IMG/VR virus record: IMGVR_UViG_3300038829_000024
Location: 1-48,938 of that record
Length of the DNA stretch: 48,938 nt
Direction: 5' to 3' (one strand)
From: a virus
Part shown: in pieces, positions 12,259 to 46,610 of the stretch
How positions within the stretch are numbered: the first letter of the stretch is position 1
Layout of the letters: each line of letters opens with the position of its first letter
Program-made: the position numbers and the translations under genes
The notes under the pieces: model-generated
Seen by the model: only the letters and a program-made list of their open reading frames with translations
Database searches by the model: none
Told to the model about the DNA's origin: nothing

Positions 12259-12327
12259 TAGATCAACTCCTTAGTTGATATGCTATACAGAGATCTAATG
12301 ACCACTTCACTTCGTTGCGTTAGCATT
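12256..12327 (-). promoter_or_regulatory. 72-nt conserved leader element, copy 1 (contains SD and the ATG of portal)
   Basis: Read on the minus strand: aatgctaacgcaacgaagtgaagtggtcattagatctctgtatagcatatcaactaaggagttgatctaatg. Near-identical copies lie at 46539-46610 and 20392-20463, with a diverged copy at 41643-41714. Confidence 0.8.
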
Positions 12328-12333
12328 AAGAAA

Positions 12334-14686: not shown

Positions 14687-14720
14687 TATATTCTATACAC
14701 AAGGTAAGGCATTTGTCAAG
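14687..14720 (-). promoter_or_regulatory. Sigma70-like promoter facing the structural (minus) arm; inverted copy of 27730-27763
   Basis: The reverse complement is cTTGACAaatgccttaccttgtgtaTAGAATata. TTGACA is a perfect -35, and TAGAAT sits 18 nt away (TATAGA at 16 nt). All 34 bp are identical to 27730-27763. Confidence 0.65.
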
Positions 14721-16462: not shown

Positions 16463-17098
16463 ATGACTAAAGTTTCGAAGAAGCATAGCACCAAGGCGGT
16501 CGTCAATGTGGTCAACACCACTAACGTCACGTCTGATGGTGCTGTTGTTGGTCGCATGGTGGACAACACCATCGCAGCGGCCAAGGCATTGGCACCGGCA
16601 CTGCACACAACTGTGTGCTCAACATGCTTGCACGTCCTGGTTCACGGCGACCCCATCCACATGAACCGCTTGTTCCAGAACATTGGTGGTGGCTTCCGTC
16701 GTGAAGCCATGGCCAAGTTCATGATCAAGTTCGGTGGCGTGAAGTACGTCAAGGGCAACAAGGACAAGGGCACTGAAGAGCAGATGTCCGTTGATCCCGA
16801 TGCTCGGGCCGTGCTCAAGGCGGAGTATGAGAAGGATGCTAGCGCATTCGTCAGCAAGCTCACGGCCAAGCCCTTCTGGGATGTCACCAAAGAAGTTCTA
16901 TTCCGTGAGTATGATCTGCTCAAGGTCATCGAACGGGAAGTGAAGAAGGCAACGGCCTTCGCCAAGGGTGTCAAACCCAGCGGCGAGACCCTGACCGAGG
17001 AAGAGCAGGCTATGGTTGACGTCACCGGGCTCAGCGTCATCGCTGATGCCTTGAAGCGTGCCAAGGTCGGCCTGCCTGCTCTCTCTGCACTGCACTAG
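16463..17098 (+). CDS. Hypothetical early protein (211 aa)
   Basis: Track ORF with ATG preceded by aggtaggatg. Sequence looks clearly protein-like. The antisense shadow ORF was ignored. Confidence 0.7.
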   Translation: MTKVSKKHSTKAVVNVVNTTNVTSDGAVVGRMVDNTIAAAKALAPALHTTVCSTCLHVLVHGDPIHMNRLFQNIGGGFRREAMAKFMIKFGGVKYVKGNKDKGTEEQMSVDPDARAVLKAEYEKDASAFVSKLTAKPFWDVTKEVLFREYDLLKVIEREVKKATAFAKGVKPSGETLTEEEQAMVDVTGLSVIADALKRAKVGLPALSALH

Positions 17099-17560: not shown

Positions 17561-17837
17561 ACTTAACTTCACCACCCTTCGTGATCTGAAGTGGCTAGTG
17601 AAGAAGGCACAGGAGAAAGGCAATGGGGATAGCATGAGCTATGCTTTCCTTAAGGCTGGTCTTTCTAAGATGATGGACGTGAACAGCAAGATCAAGTCTC
17701 TTGAGTCCTCAGTTGTGACTGTTCATGCCAACGAGTCCTTACGAGTGAAGAGCGTAAGCCTCAAGAGCGTAAGTCTCATCGAATACATCGACTTCACCAT
17801 CAAGTACAACGCTTCACGTGAGGTGAGCTGTGGATAA
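17541..17837 (+). CDS. Hypothetical protein (98 aa); contains a copy of the 33-nt hairpin repeat
   Basis: Track ORF, ATG preceded by aggaagaagaat. Confidence 0.5.
   Translation: MTGPKDKLNFTTLRDLKWLVKKAQEKGNGDSMSYAFLKAGLSKMMDVNSKIKSLESSVVTVHANESLRVKSVSLKSVSLIEYIDFTIKYNASREVSCG
17730..17777 (+). repeat. 33-nt hairpin repeat, copy 1, plus a 15-nt partial copy
   Basis: aacgagtccttacgagtgaagagcgtaagcctc followed by aagagcgtaagtctc. Core is CTTACG-N9-CGTAAG. Confidence 0.8.
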
Positions 17838-19441: not shown

Positions 19442-20034
19442 ACTACGCAGTATTACCTCTTGTTGTATGAGAGACACTAATACTGTGAGTAAGTAAACTA
19501 CGCTAAACTAGAGCAGGTTCGAGACCTCTAGCCTAGAAACGGTAGGGCTGCTAGAAAGCGTGGATACGTGGGGTTAAATTCCTCCGCCTAAAGGGGTAGT
19601 GTCCCTTGAGTGGGCTCGTTCCGTAGGTAGTAAGACATGCTGGAAATGAGTAGCTGTTCCTAAACAGTCAGCACTTCTCTGTATCCTAGTGACCTATAGA
19701 GGTCGGGGTATAGACCCAGCGACACGGCGTAGGTCCACTCTTTAGTGGGTAGCCTATAGCTAAACGTACAGCAGTAGAGGTACTGCAACTCTAGTAGCAT
19801 AGCGCTCGGCTGGTTCCAACGAACGAAGTGAAGTGACTAACGTCAGCTCCTCCAAAGAGCGTGTTCGTTAGAACACTCGCTACGCTCGTTACAACCCAGT
19901 GGCGGAAGGGTGTGAAAGAGTTACCTTCATTACATTCGTTAGAAGGTCCTAGTTAAGATGATGAGAGAGTGTCCTCTCTGACTCAGCTGACGCATGTCTT
20001 ACTAACTACACCTTAAAACAACTGGAGTACAACT
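19442..20034 (+). ncRNA. ORF-free region, candidate structured RNA or inverted-repeat-bounded element (unclassified)
   Basis: About 590 nt with no track ORF on either strand. A 13-bp perfect long-range complement joins 19628-19640 (tagtaagacatgc) to 19992-20004 (gcatgtcttacta). Local hairpins are numerous. Confidence 0.3.
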
Positions 20035-20348: not shown

Positions 20349-20380
20349 GGGGTGGTGGGTAATTCTACCACCCCTTTTTT
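20349..20380 (+). terminator. Rho-independent terminator
   Basis: ggggtggt-N10-accacccc followed by tttttt. Confidence 0.8.
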
Positions 20381-20391
20381 ATGGAACCACC

Positions 20392-20463
20392 AATGCTAAC
20401 GAAGCGAAGCGTAGTGTTCATTAGATCTCTGTATAGCATATCAACTAAGGAGTTGATCTAATG
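20392..20463 (+). promoter_or_regulatory. 72-nt conserved leader element, copy 4 (the only plus-strand copy; contains SD and the ATG of 20461)
   Basis: aatgctaacgaagcgaagcgtagtgttcattagatctctgtatagcatatcaactaaggagttgatctaatg. The 3' 45 nt are identical to the copy before portal. Confidence 0.8.
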
Positions 20464-21321
20464 AGTAAGTCACCTAAAGAATTATTCTTATCTTGCATAC
20501 CAGATTACTTCGGCTCTAAGGAAGGGGCCTGCTCTGTTCTTTTCATCAATCAAGACGACACGCAAATATGGCTGCCTAATAATGGGTGCCATGCAGTCGT
20601 TCTTAGAAAGGCCAGAGCAACCAAGTCCTTCTACTCTAGCCTGTGGTGCAGGTACGAGGAGCTGTTTGATGCAGCTCAGGACTATTGGAACTTCCTTCTC
20701 TCCCCCGCTATAAGCCCCTATCGTGCTGTTCTATCCAGTGTTGAGATCGTTCGTGATGATAAAGGTAGGCCTCTTGCCTTTGGACTGCACGATAACTCAG
20801 CCTCTTGGACACAGTGTGTATCTCTTGCCATACAATGCCGTGTGCCCCAAGAAAGCAGCAACAAGCTGCGGTCTTACTGGTGGTGGCGTAAGAATGGGTT
20901 TACCCCTGCTGCTTCTATATACATAAGTGAACTGCTGTACCTGCACATCGACGGATCTCTATCTGTTATAACAGAGTCATATGTACATAGCATTGATCCT
21001 CAACAGGGATTTAACCTTGCTGCCTTTACGGATGGAACGCCTAAGAAGCCAGACTACAATAATGGTGTTATGAAGAACGCTGATTCATATAGTTCCCCAA
21101 CTGGACAGTGGTTCGATGACTTAACTAAGCCGACTATACCACAGCTTGTGGCTGGTAAACCTAAGTATTGTGGTCTCTTTAAGAAAGTGTTTCTCTCTAC
21201 TGAGAACAAGACAGGGGTGTTTGAGGCCGGTGGTTGTGTCTCTAAGGAAGAGGCAGTCACCCTTCTCAAAGAAAAGATTAATCAGTGGGCTAAGAATGTA
21301 AAGGTATTAGAGGGATCATGA
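20461..21321 (+). CDS. Hypothetical protein, first gene of the amidoligase cassette (286 aa)
   Basis: ATG within the leader element. Its stop overlaps the next start (ATGA). Confidence 0.7.
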   Translation: MSKSPKELFLSCIPDYFGSKEGACSVLFINQDDTQIWLPNNGCHAVVLRKARATKSFYSSLWCRYEELFDAAQDYWNFLLSPAISPYRAVLSSVEIVRDDKGRPLAFGLHDNSASWTQCVSLAIQCRVPQESSNKLRSYWWWRKNGFTPAASIYISELLYLHIDGSLSVITESYVHSIDPQQGFNLAAFTDGTPKKPDYNNGVMKNADSYSSPTGQWFDDLTKPTIPQLVAGKPKYCGLFKKVFLSTENKTGVFEAGGCVSKEEAVTLLKEKINQWAKNVKVLEGS

Positions 21322-21941
21322 AAGCATTCATCTCTAACAATGATCACAATGTAAAGGCTGTGTTCAAGAAGTATGGATATGACGTGGTTAGTACCACAGA
21401 GGAAGCAGAGCTACTAGTCTTCACTGGTGGGTCTGACATTACGCCCTCACTCTACGGTGAGAGGTTAATCACAGGCACATATCCATGTTTCTCTCGTGAC
21501 CTACAAGAGATAAGACAGTGGAAGTCTAAGCCACCTTATCAACCTCGTGTTGGTATCTGTAGAGGTGCACAGCTAGGCAATGTGCTGTGCGGCGGTACGC
21601 TATGGCAGGATGTGGATAAACACGACAAGGGGTTTCATCCTATTAAGTGGAGAGATCCTGAAGGTAGAGTACATACTGGAAAGGTTAACTCTATCCACCA
21701 TCAGATGTGTAGGTTGACAGAAGAGTCTGTCCTTCTAGCCACAGCATCCCTGTCTACTAAGAAGACTAGTGAATACGAGTATCGTACATTCACAGACAAC
21801 TCTCCTAACAGGGAGGATGATGTTGAAGCATTCTACTATCCAAACTTCAACTTCTTCGGAGCACAGTGGCATCCTGAATATGGTGGTGAAGACTCCACTG
21901 AACTGTTCTTTAAGTTAATGGAACGCTATCATCACAATTAA
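21318..21941 (+). CDS. Class-I glutamine amidotransferase-like / peptidase C26 gamma-glutamyl hydrolase (PuuD-like)
   Basis: Motifs TGGSDITPSLYGE, RDLQE, GICRGAQLGNVLCGGTLWQDV, NSIHHQ and GAQWHPE. Confidence 0.8.
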   Translation: MKAFISNNDHNVKAVFKKYGYDVVSTTEEAELLVFTGGSDITPSLYGERLITGTYPCFSRDLQEIRQWKSKPPYQPRVGICRGAQLGNVLCGGTLWQDVDKHDKGFHPIKWRDPEGRVHTGKVNSIHHQMCRLTEESVLLATASLSTKKTSEYEYRTFTDNSPNREDDVEAFYYPNFNFFGAQWHPEYGGEDSTELFFKLMERYHHN

Positions 21942-21981
21942 GGGCTGCTTACGAGGCGGCAACAACATAGGAGTACGTGCC

Positions 21982-22995
21982 ATCTGTGGTCTTTGGGGAG
22001 GCTTGTCCTATTCTCTCTCTGATAAGGACGTGTTTATCATTAAGTCCCTAGCAACAGTATCTCAGTTGAGGGGTACTGATAGTACGGGTCTATTTGCAGC
22101 AATCCACGATAATAAGCGAGCGCTGTCTACTCACTATAAAGCTGCTGAGTCAGCGACGGAGTTCCTCAGGAATCCTAACACAATGAATATCCTGAGTCAT
22201 CAGGATGTGTTTATGATTGCCGGTCATAACAGGTCAGCAACCATAGGTGAAATCAGTTGTGATAACGCCCACCCATTCAAGGAGGGGCATATCATGGGTG
22301 AACATAACGGTCACATACCTGAAATGCAAGGGACTATTAATGGAATAGTAGTTCCAGATAGCCGTGTCTTATTCAAGAAGCTGAGTGAGGTTGGGCCTGA
22401 TGCTGCTCTAAGACAGGCAGACTCGGGTGCTTATGCAGTGGTGTATCTGAATGCAAAAGATGGTACACTTAACTTCTCTCGTAATGATAAGCGTACTCTA
22501 TACTTCATGGAAACGCAAGATGCTCTGTTCTGGGCAAGTGAGTGGCAGTTCCTTGATCTCGTAAAGAACAGGGATGGTAGTTCAATTACCAAGTATAAAC
22601 CCATACAGACACTAAAGCCCTACTCTCTGCTCTCTTACAATCTTTTATCTTTGTCCAAGACTGAGAGAGATCTTGAGAAGAAGGTTGTTCCTCCCTCCAG
22701 TGTGCCGTTCATACCAAGGGCAACCCCTAAAGAAGAAAGTAAAGTAGCTACAATCAAACGCAAGCCCGGGTACTATGGGTATAAGGGCAAGAACATGAAC
22801 ATCAAGAAGGCTAAGCAGCTCATAAGTAAGGGGTGTGCCTTCAACAGAGATCATCACTTGACGATTGATGACTCAGTACACTGGATCAATAATAAAGACT
22901 GCTTGTGTGAAGAGTGTGCTACCAACAAGGCTGTGCTTTCCTTTATGGGGGTCTCCCGTTCTTGGGAGGGTGTGTATGAAAAGGGGAATAAATGA
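21982..22995 (+). CDS. Class-II (Ntn) glutamine amidotransferase-like protein; proposed non-canonical ATC start so that Cys is residue 2
   Basis: The open frame begins at 21919. It encodes ..ICGLWGG.., RGTDSTGLF, AGHNRSATIG, DNAHPF and EHNGHIPE. AGGAG at 21969-21973 lies 8 nt before ATC-TGT (21982). The track start (TTG 22003) would remove the nucleophile Cys. Confidence 0.65.
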   Translation: MCGLWGGLSYSLSDKDVFIIKSLATVSQLRGTDSTGLFAAIHDNKRALSTHYKAAESATEFLRNPNTMNILSHQDVFMIAGHNRSATIGEISCDNAHPFKEGHIMGEHNGHIPEMQGTINGIVVPDSRVLFKKLSEVGPDAALRQADSGAYAVVYLNAKDGTLNFSRNDKRTLYFMETQDALFWASEWQFLDLVKNRDGSSITKYKPIQTLKPYSLLSYNLLSLSKTERDLEKKVVPPSSVPFIPRATPKEESKVATIKRKPGYYGYKGKNMNIKKAKQLISKGCAFNRDHHLTIDDSVHWINNKDCLCEECATNKAVLSFMGVSRSWEGVYEKGNK

Positions 22996-24014
22996 CTGAG
23001 TTCTTGCTTGGAGCTGACCCTGAGTTCAGCCTGATTGATACTGAAGTAATGCGTACTACTAGTGCCCATGATCTAGTGCCTGGAACCAAGGCTAACCCCC
23101 AGAAAATCACTGGTGGTTGGGTTCAGGCAGATGGAACTATGGTGGAGTACAACATACCCCCGGCTAAGTCTGCTAAAGAGTTTGTTGATAACAATGCCGA
23201 GGTCCTGAAGTCTCTTCGTGAGATGATCCCTGAGAAGTATGTCTTCTCATTCAGACCGACTGTTCACTATGACCCTTATTACTTCTCACACGTACCGCAC
23301 GTAGCCAAGGAGTTGGGCTGCTCTGCCGATTACAATGCGTGGAAGGGTGGTGGTATTAACCCGAGACCGCAGCCACCTCTTGATAGGTTGGACATGCGCA
23401 CTTGCTCAGGCCACCTGCATTTGGGGTTTACAAAAGACCAGGACCCTGATAACATGAGCCACAGGTGGGACTGTTGTCAGCTAGTCAAGCTTCTTGAGGT
23501 TGCTATCTGTCCGTACATGCCTTTATGGGACTCAGACACACAACGGCAGGTACTATATGGCAGGCCCGGTGCATTCCGTCCGAAGTCTTATGGTGTTGAG
23601 TGGCGGGTACCTAGTAATGCCTGGCTTAACTACCCTGAAATTCAAGGGTGGTTGTTTGATGCGTGCAAGTCTGTCTTCTTAACCATGAAGGCCGGTCATT
23701 ATCCTCTAGTTAAACTCCAGTCAACTGTAGATTACAGTTCTAGAAACGTTGAGTGGGGTCTTAATAGAACTCGTAAGGATGTATTAAAAGACTTCCCTGA
23801 TTTTAATGGTGGTTGGAGGGAGTCAATTGAGAAGAAGAACCAAGAACTGAGGGATAAGCATGGTGTTCCTAAGCCTATTCACCGAGGTGTCCGAGTGGCT
23901 TCTTCTAGTTACACTGTAAACTACGATCTTGATCTTGATATCAAAGGAGAAGATCGAAAGTATGCTTCTCCTTACACTATCAAACCCTTGACTATCGATG
24001 ATGTAATCAATTGA
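22992..24014 (+). CDS. COOH-NH2 ligase, phage phiEco32-like type 2 (glutamine-synthetase/GCS-fold amidoligase)
   Basis: N-terminus MTEFLLGADPEFSLID..., then GTMVEYNIPP and HLHLGF. ATGA overlap with the previous gene. Confidence 0.6.
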   Translation: MTEFLLGADPEFSLIDTEVMRTTSAHDLVPGTKANPQKITGGWVQADGTMVEYNIPPAKSAKEFVDNNAEVLKSLREMIPEKYVFSFRPTVHYDPYYFSHVPHVAKELGCSADYNAWKGGGINPRPQPPLDRLDMRTCSGHLHLGFTKDQDPDNMSHRWDCCQLVKLLEVAICPYMPLWDSDTQRQVLYGRPGAFRPKSYGVEWRVPSNAWLNYPEIQGWLFDACKSVFLTMKAGHYPLVKLQSTVDYSSRNVEWGLNRTRKDVLKDFPDFNGGWRESIEKKNQELRDKHGVPKPIHRGVRVASSSYTVNYDLDLDIKGEDRKYASPYTIKPLTIDDVIN

Positions 24015-24021
24015 GGTTAAT

Positions 24022-24720
24022 ATGGCTGCGCTTATCACTGACTCTAACCAGAGAATGAAGTTGCTTCATAATACAATTGTGAAGTACCGTGGTATATGGT
24101 GCTACTCTAACCAGACCTTAGATGAACCGGTAAGTCTTGCAGTTAAGGGTAGCCTAACCGCAATTCAGACTCTCAATAAAGATAAAATGTACCTTATTAT
24201 GGGTGCAAATAAAGATAGTAAGGGTGCATCGCTTAAGATTAATTACTATGGGTTCCACGCAGTTGACTACACAACTGACGACTTCATCATTCCAGACAAA
24301 TTGACTGTCGGTTACATGAATGACAACACCGATACTAAATATCTTTATATGAATTCTTCTAACGAAGCACCTAATGCTTCTGGCAGGCTATATTGTATAC
24401 TACCTAATTCAGGTCAGAGTCGCAGAGCGGATATTTATAATCGTGTAGCACTAGAGAACACACTTGAAGGCAACTATCCAACCCTGCAGAAGGCGCTGGA
24501 GCGGATAAGCAGGGGTGAAAGCACCTCTATAGCCTTCGACAGAGAGTTCGCCTTGTCAGGCCACATGACTGGCTTGGTCTATAGTGTTGACTATCGTGTA
24601 ACCCCCATCTTGTACAAGTATAAAGATAGTACAAAGTATAGGGTGATAAATAAGAAGTCGGTTGGTCTCTTGAAAGCAGCGCTAAACAAAGCAGGATTTC
24701 CTTATGAAAACATTGAGTAG
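24022..24720 (+). CDS. Hypothetical protein within the amidoligase cassette (232 aa)
   Basis: Track ORF, tightly packed in the operon. Confidence 0.65.
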   Translation: MAALITDSNQRMKLLHNTIVKYRGIWCYSNQTLDEPVSLAVKGSLTAIQTLNKDKMYLIMGANKDSKGASLKINYYGFHAVDYTTDDFIIPDKLTVGYMNDNTDTKYLYMNSSNEAPNASGRLYCILPNSGQSRRADIYNRVALENTLEGNYPTLQKALERISRGESTSIAFDREFALSGHMTGLVYSVDYRVTPILYKYKDSTKYRVINKKSVGLLKAALNKAGFPYENIE

Positions 24721-25693
24721 TTTTTATCCGGGCCCGGTTCCTAGTGGAGATGTTGCGCTAGAGGTCGAGGTTGAGTTCAAGTACAACCCAGCAACTCACA
24801 AGGTCTTTAACTCTATAGACCCTAACGTAAACACGGCTGTGCCAGACAAGCAGCCGGGTGGTGTCTGGTTGAGCAAGAGGGATGGGTCTTTGATGTGCGG
24901 TGTCGAGTACGTAATGCGCAATCCGGTCAAGTGCAACAAAGCAAAGAGAGAGAAGATCAAAGTTCTCACTGACTTTCTCTTTAATACACCTAATAAGAGG
25001 TGGACAGTTGATACACAGAGCACGAATGCTGGTATACACTGCCACGTGAACGCTGGTAACTTGACTCCCCTACAAATCTGGACGGCAACTGTACTCTATT
25101 GGTTGGTTGAAGACCCTATCATGAAATTCTGTGGTTCTTCTAGAATGTCTAATCAGTATTGTCACCGTAACAGAGAGGCACAAAATACCTGCTTCGATGC
25201 TCTTTATGATATCAAGAATAATGCAGTCCCATTCAAGAACTTCAACTACGAGACACAAAATCATAAGAGGTATTCCTCTTTGAACTTGGTAGCAGCCACC
25301 AAATACAGGTCTCTTGAGTTCAGAGGTATGGGGGCTAAGTACGATCTAGATGTCTTGGATGGGTGGTCTTCTGCTTTGCATGAACTGGTCCATAACTATG
25401 CTGCTCGATTTAAAGACCCTGCTGATGTTATGGATAGGTACATTGACTGTTCTAAGGACGACTTCCTTGATTATGCCTTACCCCCATTTCTGGTTAATGC
25501 AATCAGACAGACCCAAGGCTATGCTGCTGACATCAATACTGATGTGGTTCCCATTGGTCTTGTCGCTTATGCCAATGATGATTGGAGTGAGTGGGCTGCT
25601 AAGAAAGACGCCTATAACACTGACAATCCTCCTATTCCTATGCAATCTAATGCACACCCTATCGAAGAAGACTATGATACTCTTGAAGACTGA
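24704..25693 (+). CDS. Putative amidoligase (Amidoligase_2-like)
   Basis: Motifs VALEVEVEF, KRDGSLMCGVEYVMRNP, NAGIHCHVN and YRSLEFRGMG. Confidence 0.55.
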   Translation: MKTLSSFYPGPVPSGDVALEVEVEFKYNPATHKVFNSIDPNVNTAVPDKQPGGVWLSKRDGSLMCGVEYVMRNPVKCNKAKREKIKVLTDFLFNTPNKRWTVDTQSTNAGIHCHVNAGNLTPLQIWTATVLYWLVEDPIMKFCGSSRMSNQYCHRNREAQNTCFDALYDIKNNAVPFKNFNYETQNHKRYSSLNLVAATKYRSLEFRGMGAKYDLDVLDGWSSALHELVHNYAARFKDPADVMDRYIDCSKDDFLDYALPPFLVNAIRQTQGYAADINTDVVPIGLVAYANDDWSEWAAKKDAYNTDNPPIPMQSNAHPIEEDYDTLED

Positions 25694-25704
25694 AAGGAAG
25701 GACC

Positions 25705-26466
25705 ATGCGTAATGTTTATATTTACTCTTACAAACCTAGCTCAGAGGGGGCTAATGCCCTAGCTGACAATCTTGGTGTTCCCTTAATAGATAAGGATGTA
25801 AATCTTACTCGTTATGACAATAAGACTATTATCTTCAACTGGGGAATGGGAAGCTCAAATGATATCTTAAGTAAGTGTAGGGTCTTTAACAGGTACTCTA
25901 ACGTAGCGGCATGTGTCAACAAGATAGAAACCTTCAGGGCTCTATCATTGGCTGGCGTTTCTCACGTCCCCTTTACTACGGACTATGCTATCGCCCGGGA
26001 CTGGCAGCACTTTGGCTACCCTGTCTGTGTTCGTGCTTTAGCAGAAGGCGCTGATGGTGCCGGGCTGACCATTGTCAGGAGTAACCTGGAACCCATCCCT
26101 CATGCCCCTCTCTACACTAAGTTCATCAAGGCCAAGGCAGAGTACCGTGTCAACGTCTGCAACGATACGACCATGGCTGTCCAGCTGAAGGTTCCTCTTC
26201 GTAGTGATCAAAGCACAGAGATCCGTACTACTGCTGGTGGCTGGGGCTTTAGGTTGCTTGATGAGAACGAGATACCTATTGGCCTGCGCCCTGTTGCTCG
26301 TGCTGCCACTAAGGCCTTGGGCCTGGACTACGCAGGAGTTGATATGATCCATGGAGAGGATGGTAAGTTCTATGTCTTGGAGCTCAATTCTGCTCCTCAC
26401 CTTACGCCAGCTGTGGCAACCAGGTTCGCTAAAGAGTTCAAGAAAATGGTGGAGACCTATGAGTGA
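25705..26466 (+). CDS. ATP-grasp ligase (RimK-like)
   Basis: 253 aa. Motifs EYRVNV and DYAGVDMIHGEDGKFYVLELNSAPHL, the typical C-terminal ATP-grasp motif. Confidence 0.7.
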   Translation: MRNVYIYSYKPSSEGANALADNLGVPLIDKDVNLTRYDNKTIIFNWGMGSSNDILSKCRVFNRYSNVAACVNKIETFRALSLAGVSHVPFTTDYAIARDWQHFGYPVCVRALAEGADGAGLTIVRSNLEPIPHAPLYTKFIKAKAEYRVNVCNDTTMAVQLKVPLRSDQSTEIRTTAGGWGFRLLDENEIPIGLRPVARAATKALGLDYAGVDMIHGEDGKFYVLELNSAPHLTPAVATRFAKEFKKMVETYE

Positions 26467-27058
26467 GGCAAGGGGTTATAAGTTAGCTGGCTTTCTGAAA
26501 TCAGATAACCACACTACAATCCATGATACGCCAGCAGGTCAACTTCTTCTGGTCACCCACTGTGACAACTGTAAGAAGTGTGAGGTCCCCGTCAAGGAAC
26601 TACAGAAGGGGGGTATCTCCCCCAGATACTTCACCTGTGGTCCCTGTAAGGGTGGCTGTAAGTTCTCTGGGATCTATCGTACCAGTACCTATGGTAAGGT
26701 ACAGGACTCTGAACCCTCCACTATCCTGTATGTAAAACCTAAACCTATAGTCAAAACCTACCCCTTCCCAATTGATGGTACTATTGGGGAGTATACAGCA
26801 TCCTTAATTGAGGACGTAGACCCTGCAGCCCTGCCACCCTTCCATGGCTGTCCCTCCGTAGACCACGACCTTTATGACCAGGATGACCCCCTTCTAGGGG
26901 GATACACCCCTGCTTCCTCCCTGTCCTGTGCCTATAAACGAGTTCTTACGAGTGAAGAGCGTAAGCCTCCTGAGGACCTAGCCTCTAAGATTGCCCTTAG
27001 GATAATCAAGGACAATGAACGGAGGGATAGGTTGATGAAGGGGGATATCCCATTCTGA
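26459..27058 (+). CDS. Cys-rich protein (199 aa), last gene of the cassette; contains a 33-nt hairpin repeat copy
   Basis: The ATG at 26459 overlaps the ATP-grasp stop by 8 nt. Cys cluster HCDNCKKCEVP...FTCGPCKGGCKF. The track start at 26351 would lie inside the ATP-grasp gene. Confidence 0.55.
   Translation: MSEARGYKLAGFLKSDNHTTIHDTPAGQLLLVTHCDNCKKCEVPVKELQKGGISPRYFTCGPCKGGCKFSGIYRTSTYGKVQDSEPSTILYVKPKPIVKTYPFPIDGTIGEYTASLIEDVDPAALPPFHGCPSVDHDLYDQDDPLLGGYTPASSLSCAYKRVLTSEERKPPEDLASKIALRIIKDNERRDRLMKGDIPF
26937..26969 (+). repeat. 33-nt hairpin repeat, copy 2
   Basis: aacgagttcttacgagtgaagagcgtaagcctc. Confidence 0.8.
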
Positions 27059-27235
27059 GACCTCCCATCCCCTCTAGATAGGTGTTTAAAGCCTCTAGGA
27101 TGAGGCAGGAGGGCCTTGGCGTAGGGGGGCAGCCACCCATTAGCCACTCACCCTAGAAACCCGTCCTACCCCCCTTAGAATGCGTTTAAATGCCTATCAT
27201 TGAAATCATTGGATAATTTAGGATTGGGACCATTA

Positions 27236-27280
27236 GGGGGGCCGCGCCATTGGGGGTTAAGGGGGTCCAAGGGGAGGGGG
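27236..27280 (+). other. Cluster of five G-runs (G6, G5, G5, G4, G5), G-quadruplex-prone
   Basis: gggggg ccgcgccatt ggggg ttaa ggggg tccaa gggg a ggggg, read directly in an ORF-free spacer. Confidence 0.5.
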
Positions 27281-27309
27281 AGACAACCTCTGAAGATAAG
27301 AAAGGTATA

Positions 27310-27373
27310 AAGAAAGAGAAGTAAGAAAGGTAAGATGATTATAAGTGAAGTAAGAAAGAGAAGTAAGAAGGTA
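27310..27373 (+). repeat. Purine-rich direct repeats (aagaaagagaagtaagaa[a]ggta x2)
   Basis: 27310-27332 and 27352-27373 match apart from one missing a. CTTAAGG/GGTAA motifs follow at 27375-27425. Confidence 0.7.
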
Positions 27374-27431
27374 TACCCTTAAGGTTACCACTAAGGTAAC
27401 CATTAATCAACAACCACTAAGGATTAATCTA

Positions 27432-27734
27432 TTGGCTTCATGTGTTATCTGTTTAAGTACTTATGATCTAAGGGGTATTAAAGGTTCCCTTAAGGATACC
27501 TGCCCCAGGTGCCGGGCTGTGATCCATGAGGAAGCCCCGGGCATGCCGCTGTACACATCGTCCATCTCGGCCTGGACCCACCTCCAAGCAGCAGTAGAAG
27601 AACTAGAACGTAGGATACCTGGTTTGTTCTCAGGACCAGAGTGCCCCCTTACGTTTGAGAACGGTGTTGGGTGCTCTTGCACATACGAGGAGGGCTGTAA
27701 GGCCTTGAAAGATAAGGTTAATAAAAACACTTGA
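27432..27734 (+). CDS. Hypothetical Cys-rich protein (100 aa); weak call
   Basis: TTG start. Contains CVIC...CPRC. The 3' end overlaps the promoter copy. Confidence 0.3.
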   Translation: MASCVICLSTYDLRGIKGSLKDTCPRCRAVIHEEAPGMPLYTSSISAWTHLQAAVEELERRIPGLFSGPECPLTFENGVGCSCTYEEGCKALKDKVNKNT

Positions 27735-27763
27735 CAAATGCCTTACCTTGTGTATAGAATATA
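27730..27763 (+). promoter_or_regulatory. Sigma70-like promoter facing the replication genes; inverted copy of 14687-14720
   Basis: cTTGACAaatgccttaccttgtgtaTAGAATata. Confidence 0.65.
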
Positions 27764-27766
27764 TGG

Positions 27767-27994
27767 ATGGTAATGAATGAATTAGACCTCAAGATCTACA
27801 CTAAGGCCACAGAACTGGCAAAGCTTGTAAAGGTTAACAAGGAGACTTGGCAAGCAATACAGGCCCTTGAGAAGGAACTAAAGGTTCTAAGAAAAAGAAA
27901 GAAGCAGGAGACACTGCTCGATAAATGGAAGTCCGTGAACAACCACTACGTACTCATCAGCCCTGTCCAGACTGTGGTAGTTCAGACGCCTTAA
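27767..27994 (+). CDS. Small coiled-coil protein (75 aa)
   Basis: ATG 4 nt after the promoter repeat. The 3' 70 nt overlap the primase start. Confidence 0.4.
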   Translation: MVMNELDLKIYTKATELAKLVKVNKETWQAIQALEKELKVLRKRKKQETLLDKWKSVNNHYVLISPVQTVVVQTP

Positions 27995-30444
27995 GCGTCT
28001 ACTCAGACCACACGTTCTGCTTCAGCTGTAAAGCATACAACAAAGCACTGGATCAACCAGTGTATCGGAGAAGTAACCTGCCCGACATTCCTTACACATC
28101 ACAGGTCCTCTCTTGGAGAGGGCTGACAGCTTCATCGTTCAGTGCCTATGGCGTTCACTTCAAGGTGGATAGCTTTGGCAAACCCCATTCTGTTGTCTTC
28201 CCTTACGTGTCTTCAACAGGGGAAGCAGCTACCAAGGAAAGGAAGTATGACAGCAAAGAGTTCTGGTCAACAGGGGCTATGCATGAAAGCTCTCTTTTCG
28301 GCATGGATAAGTTCTCTGCCGGGTCTGCGAAAGCAATCACCGTCACAGAAGGGGAGCTGGACGCTATTTCCGTCTACCAGATGCTTGGCAGTAAATATCC
28401 CTCTGTCTCAGTCAGAGGTGCAAGCTCTGCAAGAAGGGATTGCGAAAGAGCAAGAGACTATCTCAATTCATTTGACCGTATTTACATCTGCTTCGATAAC
28501 GACGAACCAGGACAAAAGGCAGTCAAAGAAGTAAGTCAACTCTTCGACGTCAATAAGGTTGTTCACGTACAGTTAACCAAGTATAAGGATGCCAATGAAT
28601 ATCTACAACAAGGGGCTGAGAAGGAGTGGGTCTCTGTCTGGTGGAATTCTAAGCCTTATATGCCTAAGGGCATCATCAATGATTACTCTGCTATTGAGGA
28701 AATCCTTCTAACAGAGAGCGAGCAAGCTGTGGCTCACTTCCCTTTCCCTACCCTTGATGCAATGACCTATGGTATACGTCTCGGTGAGGTTCTCCTTTTC
28801 ACTGCTCAAGAGAAGGTCGGGAAACAGATATCGCTTGCGACACTTTTACCAACACCTACCGGCTGGACTGCTGTAAAGAATTTGAAAGTCGGTGACAAAC
28901 TGTTTGCAGCAGATGGGTCTGTCACTGAGGTTACATTCATAACAGAGCCCCATACTCGACCATATTTTGATGTTGTGATGAGCGATGGAACTAAGATTGA
29001 AGCTAGTGACAATCATCGCTGGACTGTTCGTGATCTGCAAAATCGTGTAGATGTTAAGACCACTCAAGAGATGTTTGATACAGAAGGTGGTATTATTGCT
29101 AAGGGTTCTAAAGCAAAGTTCGTAGTACCTCAACACCCCGGAGTTGAACTACCTGAAGCCGACTTAGAAATAGACCCTTTTCTTCTTGGTGTATGGTTGG
29201 CAGATGGTAACTCTTGGTCTGATAATGTCTGTCTGTCAAAGAGCAAGTTAGAAAGATGCTCTGGCTATGAGCTAGTGAAGTGTCGTCCTTTAACTGGTGA
29301 CAGATACGATGTGCGTCTAGAAGGATTACATCATAGTGTTCTTAAGGGACTAGGTCTCTACCGTAACAAGCACATTCCATCTATATACATTAGATCTTCC
29401 TATGAACAAAGAGAACAATTATTTAAAGGTCTTCTCTTTGATGGTTGGTCTGCAAACGGAAAGAACGGTAAGCAAGAGAACGAGTTTTACTCAAGCAATA
29501 AAAAACTCTTCGATCAAACCGTAGAACTTGCTCGTTCCCTAGGTTACATAGTGTCTTGTAGAAGTAGACAAGGACGGTACAAGAAAGATGGTATATGGGT
29601 CAATTGTAAAACTGCTTACTCATTCAGGTATCGTACATCTAAATGGAAAGCCATTAGGGAGATCAAGCCTATTGGTAATATGGAAGGTAGGTGTCTAACA
29701 GTCGATCATCCTTCTCATCTCTTTGCTGCGGGTGAAGGGTGGACCTTGACACATAATACGGAAGTAATGAGAGCGATGCAGTATCATCTGCTCAAGACTA
29801 CTGATGATAACATCGGTATCATCCACTTAGAAGAGGAAGAGAAGCGCAGTGTGCAAGGTTTGGTTGGCTACGAACTGGGCGTTGCTGCTCACCTCCCTGA
29901 TAGTGGTCTTTCAGTTGAGGACCAGCTCAAGGCATATAAGTCTCTTACGAAGAAAGACGGAAGGGTACACTTCTATTCGCACTTTGGCAGCGATGATCCT
30001 AATACGATATTGGATATTATTCGCTACCTCGCTACTGCTTGTAGCTGTAAGTATATCTTCCTTGATCACATCACCATGTTGGTAACTGGCTTCGAAGGTG
30101 ACGACGAGAGAAAGAAACTCGATTACCTCTCTACTAAGCTAGCTATGTTAACTCGTGAGCTCGACTTTACCTTGTTCCTTGTGTCTCATGTTAATGATGA
30201 TGGAAAGACTAGAGGCAGTAGGAACATAGCCAAGGTTGCAGACCTCATTGTCAGCTTGAATAGAGATGTTGAGGCAGCAACTATTGAAGAGCGGAACAGA
30301 ACTTATCTTACTGTCAAAGGCAGTAGATATGCAGGACTTAGTGGACCAGCAGGTGTACTAGTCTTCGATCAGAAGTCCTTCACACTAAAGGAGATGACAT
30401 TCGATGAGCACACAAACACAGAGCCATTTGACCCGGGGTTCTAA
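27925..30444 (+). CDS. Bifunctional primase-helicase (T7 gp4-like) interrupted by an intein
   Basis: Zn ribbon CPDCGSSDALSVYSDHTFCFSC, TOPRIM ITVTEGELDAISV and ICFDNDEPG. Walker A is split as AQEKVGK / TEVM. Helicase motifs FLDHITML and VSHVNDDGKTRGS. The host protein is 528 aa without the 311-aa insert. Confidence 0.9.
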   Translation: MEVREQPLRTHQPCPDCGSSDALSVYSDHTFCFSCKAYNKALDQPVYRRSNLPDIPYTSQVLSWRGLTASSFSAYGVHFKVDSFGKPHSVVFPYVSSTGEAATKERKYDSKEFWSTGAMHESSLFGMDKFSAGSAKAITVTEGELDAISVYQMLGSKYPSVSVRGASSARRDCERARDYLNSFDRIYICFDNDEPGQKAVKEVSQLFDVNKVVHVQLTKYKDANEYLQQGAEKEWVSVWWNSKPYMPKGIINDYSAIEEILLTESEQAVAHFPFPTLDAMTYGIRLGEVLLFTAQEKVGKQISLATLLPTPTGWTAVKNLKVGDKLFAADGSVTEVTFITEPHTRPYFDVVMSDGTKIEASDNHRWTVRDLQNRVDVKTTQEMFDTEGGIIAKGSKAKFVVPQHPGVELPEADLEIDPFLLGVWLADGNSWSDNVCLSKSKLERCSGYELVKCRPLTGDRYDVRLEGLHHSVLKGLGLYRNKHIPSIYIRSSYEQREQLFKGLLFDGWSANGKNGKQENEFYSSNKKLFDQTVELARSLGYIVSCRSRQGRYKKDGIWVNCKTAYSFRYRTSKWKAIREIKPIGNMEGRCLTVDHPSHLFAAGEGWTLTHNTEVMRAMQYHLLKTTDDNIGIIHLEEEEKRSVQGLVGYELGVAAHLPDSGLSVEDQLKAYKSLTKKDGRVHFYSHFGSDDPNTILDIIRYLATACSCKYIFLDHITMLVTGFEGDDERKKLDYLSTKLAMLTRELDFTLFLVSHVNDDGKTRGSRNIAKVADLIVSLNRDVEAATIEERNRTYLTVKGSRYAGLSGPAGVLVFDQKSFTLKEMTFDEHTNTEPFDPGF
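28825..29757 (+). mobile_element. Intein (311 aa) with LAGLIDADG homing-endonuclease domain and a class-3-like signature
   Basis: Starts with Gln (QISLATLLPTPTGW...) and ends ...GWTLTHN followed by Thr. Block B is SDNHRW (Trp codon 29020), block F is EGRCLTVDH (Cys codon 29692), block G is LTHN (Thr codon 29749). LAGLIDADG motifs are LLGVWLADGN and LFKGLLFDGW. Confidence 0.8.
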
Positions 30445-31079
30445 TGGATTGGAGTGACCTTAAGTTCTGGAAATTAGATAAATGGCGTAAGCTCGATCAG
30501 ATAGGTGGTATTCCACCTCGTGCTGCTCGAATGCGGGCACTAGATCTTACGCCATTTAATTCTGTCAAGGCTGTCATCATAGGGCAAGACCCTTACCATA
30601 GAAAGGGACAGGCAAATGGATTGTGCTTCTCCGTTAACCCTCACGTTAAGCCTCTTCCTGCTAGCCTCCGTAACATTCTTGCTGAGTATAGTAGTGATCT
30701 GGGCGTGCCGATGCCTAAGACAGGAGATCTCTCACTGTGGGCCGAACGGGGAATACTTCTACTCAATTCAGTATTATCCGTTGAACCTGGAAAACCAAAC
30801 AGTCACAAGAACAGAGGATGGGAGCAACTAACATATGAGATCGTGTCTACATTGTCATACCGCAGGGAAGGCATTGTATGGATGCTGTGGGGCAACGAAG
30901 CCCAGCAGTTCATGGGTGCCATCGACCAAGATAAGCATTGCGTTATCTGTAGTGCTCATCCCAGCCCTCTGGCTCGCAGTGCACCTAACCCTTTCCTAGG
31001 GTCCAAGCCTTTCTCACGATGCAACGACTACCTGAAGTCTAAGAACATAGAGCCTATTGATTGGAGATTAAGAGAATGA
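30444..31079 (+). CDS. ung: Uracil-DNA glycosylase, family 1
   Basis: Motifs GQDPYH, GLCFSV, LLLNSVLSV and SAHPSPLA. TAATG overlap with the helicase stop. Confidence 0.9.
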   Translation: MDWSDLKFWKLDKWRKLDQIGGIPPRAARMRALDLTPFNSVKAVIIGQDPYHRKGQANGLCFSVNPHVKPLPASLRNILAEYSSDLGVPMPKTGDLSLWAERGILLLNSVLSVEPGKPNSHKNRGWEQLTYEIVSTLSYRREGIVWMLWGNEAQQFMGAIDQDKHCVICSAHPSPLARSAPNPFLGSKPFSRCNDYLKSKNIEPIDWRLRE

Positions 31080-31327: not shown

Positions 31328-31823
31328 TCTCCATGAGTTTCCTGCTTGCTGCGGTATTAAGGTCTTGACTCGTTGGGGGTGGGCTAAGGGTACTGCATCT
31401 GGCCAAGAACCAGTTCCTTATGAAGTTCTCGAGGCAGACCTTAAAGAGTTTGTTGGTAAGCTTGAGACATATCATGGACTTACTCTTGTTGCCCTAGAGC
31501 CCCAGCAGACAGAGCAGGTAGAATACTTGCTTAAGCAGTATAAGTTCTTCCCTTTGGTTAAGAACTTCTATAACCCCAACATGAAGTCTACCTTGACACT
31601 GTACGGTAGAATTCAGAATGAGAATTATGAACCCCTAGAAGTAGGTCATTTGAAGTATGGGAAAGATGAAAAACCTAGCGACGAAACTCGAAGAAAGGTT
31701 TCGGCTGGGGACAAGAAGTTCAAGGAACCACCGGCCAGTGTCAGTGGGGCGTTTAATTCCACTGTCATCTCAGGAACTCCATTATATACTGGCGTGTACT
31801 GGTCTAACGTCATCTTTGACTAA
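31314..31823 (+). CDS. Hypothetical protein (169 aa from the ATG at 31314)
   Basis: GAGG at 31304-31307 precedes the ATG at 31314. The track start is at 31302. Confidence 0.6.
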   Translation: MKALNLHEFPACCGIKVLTRWGWAKGTASGQEPVPYEVLEADLKEFVGKLETYHGLTLVALEPQQTEQVEYLLKQYKFFPLVKNFYNPNMKSTLTLYGRIQNENYEPLEVGHLKYGKDEKPSDETRRKVSAGDKKFKEPPASVSGAFNSTVISGTPLYTGVYWSNVIFD

Positions 31824-31889
31824 CGAGTTCTTACGAGTGAAGAGCGTAAGTCTCAACGAGTTCTTACGAAGTGAAGAGGCGTAAGCCTC
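31822..31889 (+). repeat. 33-nt hairpin repeat, copies 3 and 4 in tandem, ending 1 nt before the DNA polymerase ATG
   Basis: aacgagttcttacgagtgaagagcgtaagtctc plus aacgagttcttacgaagtgaagaggcgtaagcctc. The CTTACG/CGTAAG stem is kept and the loop is 2 nt longer in copy 4. Confidence 0.8.
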
Positions 31890-31890
31890 A

Positions 31891-41645: not shown

Positions 41646-41714
41646 TAGATCAAATCCTTATTTGATTGGCTATACAGAGATCTAATGAACACTTCTCTTC
41701 GTTCAGTTAGCATT
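41643..41714 (-). promoter_or_regulatory. 72-nt conserved leader element, copy 2 (diverged, with compensatory stem changes)
   Basis: Minus-strand read: ...cattagatctctgtatagccaatcaaataaggatttgatctaatg. The inner stem is ATCAAAT/ATTTGAT here, versus ATCAACT/AGTTGAT in the other copies. Confidence 0.75.
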
Positions 41715-46541: not shown

Positions 46542-46610
46542 TAGATCAACTCCTTAGTTGATATGCTGTACAGAGATCTAATGACCACTTCACTTCGTTG
46601 CGTTAGCATT
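46539..46610 (-). promoter_or_regulatory. 72-nt conserved leader element, copy 3
   Basis: Differs from copy 1 at a single position (gctgtacag versus gctatacag). Confidence 0.8.

Follow-up and report, generated by a model that had tools for sequence, protein, structure and literature searches.

A cassette of the kind considered here has been noted in podo phages since 2009–2013 (Iyer et al. 2009; Hardies et al. 2013) and has been described for RIO-1/PSA-HP1, phiEco32, 7-11, PA11/TC6, CW02, and LUZ24/PaP3/tf. It has been published as a "peptidoglycan modification cassette" and as an "operon metabolizing gamma-glutamyl amide linkages", with a proposal that combines the cell wall and gamma-glutamyl chemistry (PMC5498523, PMC11945000, PMC10580990, PMC4819975), and the published candidate acceptor is the peptidoglycan stem-peptide precursor, with three free carboxylates and unusual linkages. 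In the literature searched, we found no biochemical, genetic, or muropeptide evidence on any cassette member and no paper giving a substrate or product for a phage cassette. A preliminary description of the DNA analyzed here was correct in stating that surveys comparing genomes had already pointed to operons of this kind in phages, and it likewise gave no defined substrate or product for any phage cassette.

The stretch under study (hereafter, the window) comprises 48,938 nucleotides of a virus record from IMG/VR (IMGVR_UViG_3300038829_000024). We are confident that its ORF1 to ORF7 form a divergent, complete version of the phage-restricted seven-gene cassette, located in the usual slot of an uncultured marine Zobellviridae-like phage. 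The cassette is already known and named in several papers, and the window adds a divergent copy.

Cassette layout and relatives

The ORF scan of the window revealed eight tightly spaced ORFs on the plus strand (20461–27058), overlapping or abutting as first described. ORF1/ORF2 and ORF3/ORF4 share ATGA overlaps, ORF5/ORF6 and ORF7/ORF8 overlap by 17 and 8 nt, and gaps of 40, 7, and 11 nt separate ORF2/ORF3, ORF4/ORF5, and ORF6/ORF7, respectively. Upstream, the early-gene block is closed by an intrinsic-terminator-like element on the plus strand (20349–20380), in which an 11-pair stem (7 G-C pairs) with a loop of 4 (20349–20374) is followed by the T-run TTTTTTAT. Downstream, a spacer with G-runs and purine-rich short tandem repeats (27059–27431) contains no plus-strand ORF of at least 50 aa, and both flanks are thus as the preliminary description had them. 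Beyond the spacer come a small ORF and a strong sigma-70-like promoter (27731–27760) heading the replication genes; the cassette is flanked by the early genes on one side and the primase/helicase-UDG-PolA block on the other.

Comparison of gene neighborhoods in related phages showed that the order of ORF1 to ORF7 is identical in the window and at least 15 other loci; it occurs in Zobellviridae (PA11/TC6, CW02, CVT22), phiM6, and many metagenomic phages, with a rearranged order in LUZ24-like phages. Carriers include Zobellviridae, phiM6, and RIO-1-like, phiEco32-like, and LUZ24-like podoviruses, and their listed cultured hosts are all Gram-negative Proteobacteria. A tblastn search with ORF4 matched 318 GenBank phage records. 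The 185,579 species genomes of GTDB yielded 30 matches, all on MAG contigs and none from isolate genomes; roughly half of the contigs have the size of a phage genome (42–54 kb) and most others are short fragments. Profile scans of the window ORFs detected no GGCT gene, which many other versions of the cassette have, indicating that the pathway is not identical across carriers.

The eight-ORF cassette originally proposed holds for ORF1 to ORF7, which are conserved together elsewhere, but not for ORF8 (26459–27058, plus strand), a Cys-rich protein of 199 aa whose start overlaps the ORF7 stop. A phmmer search of 1.84e9 representative proteins retrieved only ORF8 itself and two marginal Cys-repeat matches, and relatives have unrelated small ORFs in what is a variable slot. 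As judged by these comparisons, ORF8 is a lineage-specific orphan outside the conserved cassette. ORF8 also contains a copy of the D3 hairpin repeat (26926–26974).

Enzymes and conserved proteins of the cassette

Profile-HMM searches backed all five enzyme assignments made initially from motifs, and the resulting tally of three ATP-dependent carboxylate-amine ligases and two glutamine-type amidohydrolases with a Cys nucleophile holds. Catalytic motifs are kept across 34–43 unique homologues in each of the five families. ORF2 (21318–21941, plus strand; 207 aa) is a PuuD-like class-I GATase/Peptidase C26 by HMMs and motifs, with a Cys-His-Glu triad in GICRG, HHQ, and WHPE. It matches Pfam PF07722 (4.6e-17), PF00117 (7e-6), and phrog_7218 (2.7e-34), it matches 3fij in the PDB (6e-11), and by both profile and PDB matches it is nearest to gamma-glutamyl hydrolases of the PuuD/SpuA type. 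ORF3 (21982–22995, plus strand; 337 aa) combines, by HMMs and alignment, an Ntn class-II GATase domain (PF13522, 4e-10; phrog_4736, 3e-46) with a C-terminal Cys cluster, and matches EgtC weakly in an NCBIfam-type profile search. It retains the GHNR, NAHP, HNG, and DS motifs, which in GlmS/EgtC bind a free alpha-amino-acid glutamyl moiety. It is the shortest of its family, and the middle domain of ~100 aa seen in the TC6/CW02 type is missing. No ATG, GTG, or TTG lies upstream of its catalytic Cys codon, and an automated ORF call takes TTG 22003 as the start and so drops this Cys. Homologues begin M/V/L-C-G in the alignment, which places the start at 21982, where the codon directly before the Cys is ATC, with GGAG 8 nt upstream. 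The Ntn amidotransferase gene thus appears to start at ATC. The catalytic Cys is conserved in both amidohydrolases: the ORF2 triad motifs, including the GxCRG Cys, are kept in 35 of 36 unique homologues, and the Ntn Cys1 of ORF3 in 38 of 40.

The ligases were likewise assigned with HMMs. ORF4 (22992–24014, plus strand; 340 aa) is a phiEco32-type COOH-NH2 ligase (GCS/GS-like) that matches PF14395 weakly (1.6e-3, under the gathering score) and phrog_3815 at 3.5e-53; 38 columns are invariant across 12 homologues, and its C-terminal extension is common only to the closest metagenomic relatives. ORF6 (24704–25693, plus strand; 329 aa) belongs to Amidoligase_2 (GS/GCS-like; PF12224, 1.9e-7; phrog_7469, 2.5e-32), has an acidic C-terminal tail, and shares the motifs ExEVE, DGSL, EYV, HxHxN, and EFR, kept among 7 phages. 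ORF7 (25705–26466, plus strand; 253 aa) is a RimK-family ATP-grasp ligase with conserved motifs, among them Y.LE.N.AP. It matches PF08443 over the gathering score (3.8e-5), phrog_2599 at 6e-42, and TIGR00768 rimK_fam at 3.2e-9, the last far under the curated cut-off of 143 bits, and its best NCBIfam neighbors are the RimK family and MptN, alpha-L-glutamate ligases.

The preliminary description had suggested that the three unassigned proteins could be substrate or scaffold, which the comparisons do not favor: ORF8 is the orphan discussed above, and ORF1 and ORF5 are, from homologues and synteny, conserved core members of the cassette. ORF1 (20461–21321, plus strand; 286 aa) is its conserved first gene, and every homologue (36–44% identical) heads the same cassette. 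The invariant motifs NGCH, YSSLWCR, and QCRVPQE make ORF1 look enzyme-like. Profile searches gave no Pfam or PHROG match. The AF2 model (pLDDT 80, pTM 0.82) has no fold match in the PDB at E<1e-3, but matches proteins of CVT22, CW02, and GAP52 in BFVD at E~1e-6, and hhalign against TC6/CVT22-type first genes gave E 2e-4 with a probability of 47%. ORF5 (24022–24720, plus strand; 232 aa) evolves rapidly and keeps a constant position, in every case flanked by the two GS-like ligases; this synteny holds in at least 20 loci recovered with a purpose-built HMM. It is 11–22% identical to its positional homologues and matches phrog_11055 weakly (2.7e-4); its AF2 model is unusable (pLDDT 43). Alignment of these homologues showed a variable C-terminus without the terminal Glu/Gln of LysW, S6, or Pup.

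Leader element and timing of expression

The claim of a four-copy, 72-nt leader with a sole plus-strand copy ahead of the cassette was borne out. This copy (20392–20463) contains the Shine-Dalgarno sequence AAGGAG, and its last three nucleotides are the ORF1 ATG. The other three are on the minus strand. One separates the stop codon of the large terminase gene from the start codon of the portal gene (12256–12328), another lies between the genes of the 1612-aa internal virion protein and a 773-aa protein (41643–41715), and the third lies between the gene of a gp14-like protein of 182 aa and that of the 1612-aa protein (46539–46611). All four copies terminate in the start codon of the next gene. 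The minus-strand copies are 89–99% identical to each other, and the plus-strand copy is 88–93% complementary to them. That these copies precede the portal and two internal-virion genes stands for the portal and the 1612-aa protein, but for the 773-aa protein only by gene order, as it has no PHROG family and no significant Pfam match. In the plus-strand leader, a 9-nt arm, CATTAGATC, is predicted to be able to pair with GATCTAATG, ATG included, and the copy at 41643–41715 has a paired C>A/G>T change in the inner hairpin. Leader folding is a prediction, with RNA-fold z-scores of just −0.4 to −1.9.

The co-regulation with virion proteins that had been deduced from the leader is not supported. Scans of two public collections, the viral contigs of IMG/VR and the metagenome contigs of JGI, did not recover the leader, and the nearest relatives have a different element upstream of ORF1. 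In PaP3, the block with the homologous cassette belongs to the middle genes, grouped with the replication genes (PMC4707531). With the leader confined to this genome in the scans and the PaP3 block in the middle class, a regulatory link to the virion is unproven. Since the virion-gene copies are intercistronic and begin at or just past the preceding stop codon (the first TAA of the copy at 46539–46611 is itself that stop, and the TGA of the preceding gene falls within the copy at 41643–41715), the four copies may share translation-level control rather than a virion link. The module would probably be transcribed as its own unit in mid-infection, a terminator-like hairpin preceding ORF1 both in this phage and in relatives, although the leader that it has in common with late structural genes here does not sit well with an exclusively middle-gene role.

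Proposed pathway, alternatives, and comparison with known systems

We propose that ORF4 and ORF6 (GS/GCS-like) and ORF7 (RimK-like) would each use ATP to activate a carboxylate and then link it to an amine, so that the three ligases could create as many as three amide bonds, including one or more of the glutamyl type. ORF2 and ORF3 would either split glutamine to supply ammonia for carboxylate amidation or trim gamma-glutamyl groups. ORF1 is probably an additional enzyme, and ORF5 probably serves both flanking ligases as an adaptor or specificity subunit. The seven proteins are predicted to be soluble and cytoplasmic, none of the products having a transmembrane segment, and the ATP dependence also implies a cytoplasmic location. 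The acceptor would most likely be a low-molecular-weight, peptide-type substrate of host origin. The peptidoglycan idea rests on ligase counting and analogy, and neither a Mur-ligase fold nor a peptidoglycan-binding domain is present in any cassette protein. As a whole, comprising the cassette identity, the amide-ligase mechanism, the peptide-type target, and the mid-infection unit, this explanation is tentative, and we rate it at somewhat below an even chance.

Gamma-glutamyl metabolism of free small molecules (PuuA/PuuD, EgtA/EgtC, BtrJ/BtrG) is an equally good fit for the enzyme families. A soluble gamma-glutamyl compound, e.g., a gamma-glutamyl polyamine, a glutathione-like peptide, or an anti-defense or signaling molecule, might be made or consumed for the benefit of the phage with no cell-wall role. 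The PuuD/SpuA affinity of ORF2, the EgtC match of ORF3, the cytoplasmic location of every product, and the add-and-remove logic of GS/GCS-like ligases with such hydrolases (and GGCT in other versions) all agree with this, but the cassette has no transporter and, unless it is ORF1, no recognized oxidase, decarboxylase, or other tailoring enzyme, and no such metabolite is reported in the literature; we consider it unlikely. Similarly unlikely is a protein-modifying role, in which the ligases would tag a phage or host protein with glutamate or short peptides in a RimK-, TTL-, or PafA-like manner, with the hydrolases as editors of the tag. ORF7 is similar to RimK, which, like LysX and PafA, targets carboxylates or lysines of proteins, and ORF5 is conserved between two GS-like ligases without enzyme signatures. 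Low-copy virion proteins could then be the targets here, explaining the leader that the portal and internal virion protein genes share with the cassette. The variable ORF5 C-terminus, the restriction of the leader to this genome, and the middle class of the PaP3 block argue against it, and in a keyword search, the virion mass-spectrometry paper on phiRIO-1 named the operon in introductory passages only, as a gamma-glutamyl-amide operon.

Two further explanations have a much lower probability. Amidoligase and amidotransferase domains have been associated with thymidine-hypermodification clusters on viral contigs (Lee et al., PMC8989533), and the cassette might add amino-acid-derived groups to a modified phage base; the scan of the window ORFs, however, found no dUMP/dCMP hydroxymethylase, 5-HMUDK kinase, aGPT-Pplase, TET/JBP, or DpdA-like gene, and a family-1-like UDG adjoins the polymerase, which leaves this the least probable reading. 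The cassette might also be decaying, with ORF3 a null allele (ATG mutated to ATC) and the pathway incomplete in this genome. With no canonical start codon before its catalytic Cys, ORF3, also the shortest family version, could be poorly expressed or dead here. Against decay, the frame is unbroken with every catalytic motif present, and at least four other loci (L007, L014, L033, and L016; the last two clearly independent of the window) have ATC or ATT at the equivalent position with a correctly spaced Shine-Dalgarno sequence and no canonical in-frame start further upstream, making a null allele very improbable.

The closest known system is the podovirus cassette itself, with which the window copy shares five enzyme families and two conserved uncharacterized proteins, the order found in TC6, CW02, CVT22, phiM6, and oyster-metagenome Zobellviridae, and the location upstream of primase/helicase. 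It differs by an amino-acid identity of at most ~40–45% to any known member, the lack of a GGCT gene, the shortest ORF3 with an apparent ATC start and no TC6/CW02 middle domain, the C-terminal extension of ORF4 otherwise seen only in its closest metagenomic relatives, and the leader also found on virion genes. A small, poorly ordered protein between two GS-like carboxylate-amine ligase paralogues also recalls PafA/Dop/Pup, but we rejected this Pup-ligase system, as ORF5 has no conserved C-terminal Gln/Glu and no HMM relationship to Pup_ligase was found. MurT/GatD (a class-I GATase with a ligase) and AsnB1/LtsA (class-II GATase) carry out cytoplasmic, ATP-dependent amidation of stem-peptide carboxylates; by analogy, the cassette would resemble them in having both GATase classes and ATP-driven carboxylate activation, but it has GS/GCS-like and RimK-like folds instead of a Mur-ligase or asparagine-synthetase domain. 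PuuA/PuuD (putrescine), EgtA/EgtC (ergothioneine), and BtrJ/BtrG (butirosin) are gamma-glutamyl add-and-remove pathways, which likewise pair a GS/GCS-like or ATP-grasp ligase with a glutamyl-removing C26, Ntn, or GGCT enzyme, ORF2 resembling Peptidase_C26/PuuD-like structures and ORF3, weakly, EgtC. Unlike these pathways, the cassette has no recognized tailoring enzyme between the add and remove steps, contains three ligases rather than one, and belongs to a phage-restricted family.

Gene content and relatives of the cassette

We detected in the window a new, divergent copy of a known phage cassette. Eight plus-strand ORFs (ORF1–ORF8) run from 20461 to 27058, either overlapping or separated by gaps of at most 40 nt. 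A terminator-like hairpin lies upstream at 20349–20380 (11 pairs, 7 of them G-C, with a T-run), and an ORF-free, G-rich spacer with tandem repeats lies downstream at 27059–27431, so that the layout given in the preliminary description holds in these respects. No membrane-spanning segments were found in any of the eight products, and their predicted location is cytoplasmic.

The ligase and amidotransferase functions previously assigned from motifs are supported by profile matches to Pfam and PHROG families in all five ORFs concerned. ORF2 (21318–21941) belongs to the Peptidase_C26/class-I GATases (PF07722, 4.6e-17; PDB 3fij, 6e-11) and ORF3 (21982–22995) to GATase_6, i.e., Ntn class II (PF13522, 4e-10; phrog_4736, 3e-46). 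ORF4 (22992–24014) is a phiEco32-type COOH-NH2 ligase (phrog_3815, 3.5e-53), its match to PF14395 being weak and below the gathering score (1.6e-3). ORF6 (24704–25693) is an Amidoligase_2 protein (PF12224, 1.9e-7, above the gathering score; phrog_7469, 2.5e-32), and ORF7 (25705–26466) is a RimK-family ATP-grasp protein (PF08443, 3.8e-5, above the gathering score; TIGR00768, 3.2e-9; phrog_2599, 6e-42).

The catalytic residues are conserved as well. The Cys-His-Glu triad of ORF2 lies in GICRG, HHQ and WHPE, a set of motifs that is complete in 35 of 36 unique homologous sequences. The catalytic Cys of ORF3 is kept in 38 of 40, and GHNRSAT, NAHPF, HNGHI and PDSRV align with columns invariant in four homologues (the glutamine-binding/oxyanion motifs GHxR, NAHP, HNG and DS). 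The ligase families hold many residues invariant among homologues, with 38 invariant columns in ORF4 and its 11 homologues. Considering this conservation of the catalytic motifs, the reading of these ORFs as ligases and amidotransferases stands. The amidoligases of the window's clade also end in a short acidic tail (...EEDYDTLED, ...DETID, ...SEFED and ...EYNDLD in ORF6 and its homologues at the metagenomic loci L004, L006 and L007), which is absent or different in TC6/CW02-type proteins.

By megablast, the complete cassette had no match in 50,697 phage records, and tblastn with ORF4 gave 318 phage records at no more than ~42% identity. The annotated regions of TC6, CW02, CVT22, phiM6 and a Zobellviridae phage from an oyster metagenome have the gene order of the window (i.e., unknown protein, C26, class-II GATase, COOH-NH2 ligase, unknown protein of ~190 aa, amidoligase, ATP-grasp, small genes, primase/helicase), whereas the LUZ24-like phage PhiCHU carries a rearranged version. 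With HMMs built from our own alignments, the families of ORF1–ORF7 (F1–F7) were found in this order in the window and at least 15 loci, and in the order F2-F4-F6-F3-F7 in another group of loci. The closest metagenomic relatives have the same seven genes, with ORF1 identities of 36–44%. The window thus has the features of membership in the seven-gene gamma-glutamyl/amide ("peptidoglycan modification") cassette of podoviruses: a phiEco32-type COOH-NH2 ligase, an Amidoligase_2 and a RimK-like ATP-grasp gene in one operon, both class-I/C26 and class-II (Ntn) genes, and, in a podovirus genome, the conserved order with both unknown proteins, placed ahead of the primase/helicase. No match to GGCT/GGACT was found in any window ORF scanned. 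A GGCT (AIG2) gene is present in many versions, among them CW02, phiM6, PhiCHU and locus L011, and none was marked by Pfam in L004, L006 and L007; since its presence varies among carriers, we treat this gene as accessory to the cassette and not as defining it.

A scan of the GTDB species genomes for the COOH-NH2 ligase, made with two peptide patterns only and of limited sensitivity, gave 30 matches, all on MAG contigs and none in an isolate. About half of these contigs have the size of a phage genome, the others being mostly short fragments, so the matches provide no informative bacterial context. The ligase family appears to be phage-restricted in these genomes. The cassette has been described in similar terms before (PMC11945000, PMC10580990, PMC6209634, PMC3890496), and its proposal, according to published descriptions, goes back to Iyer et al. 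2009.

Core members and the start of the ORF3 gene

The preliminary description had left three ORFs without assignment. Two of them, ORF1 (20461–21321) and ORF5 (24022–24720), are confirmed as core members of the cassette, while the third, ORF8 (26459–27058), is an orphan without relatives among 1.84 billion representatives. Since ORF8 is an orphan and its slot is filled by unrelated small genes in other phages, the conserved unit consists of ORF1–ORF7.

NGCH, YSSLWCR, QCRVPQE and Y.H are invariant in ten homologues of ORF1, and its AlphaFold model is confident (pLDDT 80, pTM 0.82). A search of the PDB with this model gave no match at E<1e-3; kinases, which formed the top rows, were rejected as fold relatives, their TM of ~0.18 being noise. 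In BFVD, the model matched uncharacterised proteins of CVT22, CW02, Cronobacter phage GAP52, an Aeromonas phage and a Proteus phage (E 1e-6 to 1e-4). When its profile was aligned with that of the genes heading the cassettes in TC6, CVT22, phiM6 and PhiCHU, E was 2e-4 at a probability of only 47%, and the ORF1 family had no match in Pfam or PHROGs. ORF5 is conserved in position in at least 20 loci and evolves fast (11–22% identity); its profile search gathered only six proteins, and its model is unusable (pLDDT 43). A role of ORF5 as a carrier or tag of the LysW, S6 or Pup kind was rejected because the C-terminus of its family is not conserved.

In Ntn class-II amidotransferases, the catalytic Cys becomes the first residue once the initiator Met has been removed. 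Inspection by hand of 13 homologues showed that the codon of this Cys directly follows an ATG, GTG or TTG start. In the window, this Cys is preceded not by a canonical start but by ATC (at 21982; ATC-TGY at 21982–21987), with GGAG 8 nt upstream and no canonical in-frame start back to the previous stop. ATC-TGY was also found at two homologous loci, L007 (6909–6914) and L014 (6450–6455), and ATT-TGY, without an upstream canonical start, in L033 (10460–10465) and L016 (2298–2303), while in L030 (610–615) the codon is ATT and the Shine-Dalgarno sequence is well placed. The ATC/ATT loci, including the window, have a Shine-Dalgarno sequence 7–9 nt upstream, and five of the six have no upstream canonical in-frame start. 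Over ~36 unique loci, the codons at the start position are ATG (23), TTG (4), GTG (2), ATC (3) and ATT (2, or 3 with L016). The recurrence across loci and the Shine-Dalgarno spacing argue, at the level of sequence, for ATC/ATT as a real, weak initiation codon of this gene and against both a sequencing error and a dead allele. As weak or non-canonical codons recur at the start position, gene callers truncate the Ntn nucleophile, and the catalytic Cys was cut off both in the mechanical ORF list of the window and in the deposited gene call of L007.

The phage genome and the leader

At ~48.8 kb, the window represents a complete podovirus genome, as indicated by its identical ends (1–127 and 48812–48938, 127 nt), which represent either a terminal direct repeat or an overlap from circular assembly. 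The large terminase (TerL) shares ~59% identity with its counterparts in cobaviruses, SIO1 and P12053L. Virion-side genes encode a T7-type portal, a gp14-like protein and a 1612-aa internal virion protein, and the other genes include those for a primase/helicase, UDG, PolA, a Cas4-like exonuclease and a metallophosphoesterase. Protein sequences identical to those of the window are recorded in the EMBL metagenome WGS set CXWL01. Based on the TerL match, the gene content and this metagenome record, the window is an uncultured Zobellviridae-like phage.

Rfam and tRNA scans of the window gave no match. The spacer at 27059–27431, which has runs of 5–6 G and purine-rich 9–13-nt tandem repeats (27293–27406), sits just upstream of the replication genes and may act as an origin or in regulation. 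An identical (100%) 34-nt sequence holding a near-consensus sigma-70 promoter (TTGACA-N18-TAGAAT) occurs twice in opposite orientations, heading the terminase/structural operon at 14687–14720 (−) and the primase/helicase replication block at 27730–27763 (+); L004 has a comparable inverted pair (2427–2491 and 16533–16597). The primase/helicase (27925–30444, +) has 839 aa, compared with 473–529 aa in relatives, and its insertion at about residues 290–600, between the Toprim and DnaB_C parts and with a homing-endonuclease domain (PF05204) at 484–569, is very probably an intein. Between this gene and PolA lies a UDG-superfamily gene (30444–31079, +) with a GQDPYH motif (PF03167, 2e-14), the position of which is kept in L004, L006 and L007.

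The 72-nt leader is present in four copies, as had been described, each with the ATG of the gene that follows at its 3' end. The plus-strand copy (20392–20463) begins 11 nt past the terminator, and the minus-strand copies are followed by the genes of the portal (copy at 12256–12328), a 773-aa protein (41643–41715) and the 1612-aa internal virion protein (46539–46611). Among themselves, the minus-strand copies have identities of 89–99%; the complementarity of the plus-strand copy to them is 88–93%. The minus-strand copies fill the entire intergenic gap, beginning at or just after the preceding stop or enclosing it. A 9-nt arm of the leader, CATTAGATC, can pair with GATCTAATG, which contains the ATG, and an alternative inner hairpin has the Shine-Dalgarno sequence in its loop, one copy showing one paired C>A/G>T change. 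The fold statistics are weak (z-scores of -0.4 to -1.9, and a consensus fold without a compensatory pair), and an RNA structure of the leader is not statistically supported. No sigma-70 promoter was found in the leader by consensus scan, and no candidate -10 hexamer is conserved from copy to copy.

The leader had been taken to argue for co-regulation of the cassette with virion proteins, which our results do not bear out. Searches of IMG/VR viral contigs and JGI metagenome contigs gave no match to the leader core, and upstream of ORF1 the nearest relatives carry another conserved element, which includes a hairpin and a T-run. Besides, the block around the primase/helicase of PaP3, in which the homologous cassette lies (cassette gene numbers per PMC3890496), is of the middle class by microarray and inhibitor data (PMC4707531). 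The leader is real, but it does not show the cassette acting on virions; on one reading, it may be a translation-limiting intercistronic element for low-copy products.

A hairpin repeat, CTTACG-AGTGAAGAG-CGTAAG, was also found on the coding strand close to the 3' ends of genes, at 17719–17767, 26926–26974 (inside ORF8) and 31811–31859, with an extra tandem copy at ~31844–31890. This repeat and the leader have a common core, ACGA(A)GTGAAG (also at 19823–19835), and the 13-mer ACGAAGTGAAGTG is found without mismatch at 19823, 12305 and 46588. The core may be a phage-specific regulatory motif.

Possible targets and comparison with known systems

Based on the enzyme families, the ligases of the cassette would carry out three ATP-dependent amide-bond formations, while the two Cys enzymes would deliver glutamine-derived ammonia or trim gamma-glutamyl groups. 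The target would be a host acceptor of low molecular weight and peptide type, for which the peptidoglycan stem-peptide precursor, a published candidate, is slightly favoured. The modification of peptidoglycan peptides by the cassette is a published hypothesis, and no substrate, product, knockout or peptidoglycan-modification experiment is reported for the cassette in the literature searched.

This cassette ranks with the most widespread of the conserved phage operons that have a predictable enzymology, and identifying its product, a question since 2009, would show a new route by which lytic podoviruses rewire host chemistry. The window is no easier a test case, as the phage is uncultured; cultured carriers with tractable hosts exist (TC6/PA11, CW02, LUZ24/PaP3 and phiEco32) and are better suited to working out the function. 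What we add here is modest, namely the core status of ORF1 and ORF5, a confident ORF1 model without a PDB match, the apparent phage restriction of the ligase and the truncated Ntn calls.

The same enzymes could also deal in a free gamma-glutamyl metabolite, which is a rival to a peptide-type acceptor. It is rather improbable that the cassette has been recruited through the leader to the late programme, where it would glutamylate or peptide-modify low-copy virion proteins (portal and ejected internal proteins) or another macromolecule, with ORF1 as a new kind of enzyme in the pathway.

Protein tagging is a further rival to the favoured stem-peptide precursor; in Pup/LysW-type systems, the small partner has a conserved C-terminal Glu/Gln, which is missing from the ORF5 family. 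DNA hypermodification is unlikely because its partner enzymes are all missing from the window, where Pfam and PHROGs gave no dUMP hydroxymethylase, TET/JBP, 5-HMUDK kinase or aGPT-Pplase among the ORFs. In this respect, the window differs from the thymidine-hypermodification clusters (Lee et al. 2018/2021), in which a hydroxymethylase or TET/JBP forms a set with 5-HMUDK and aGPT-Pplase.
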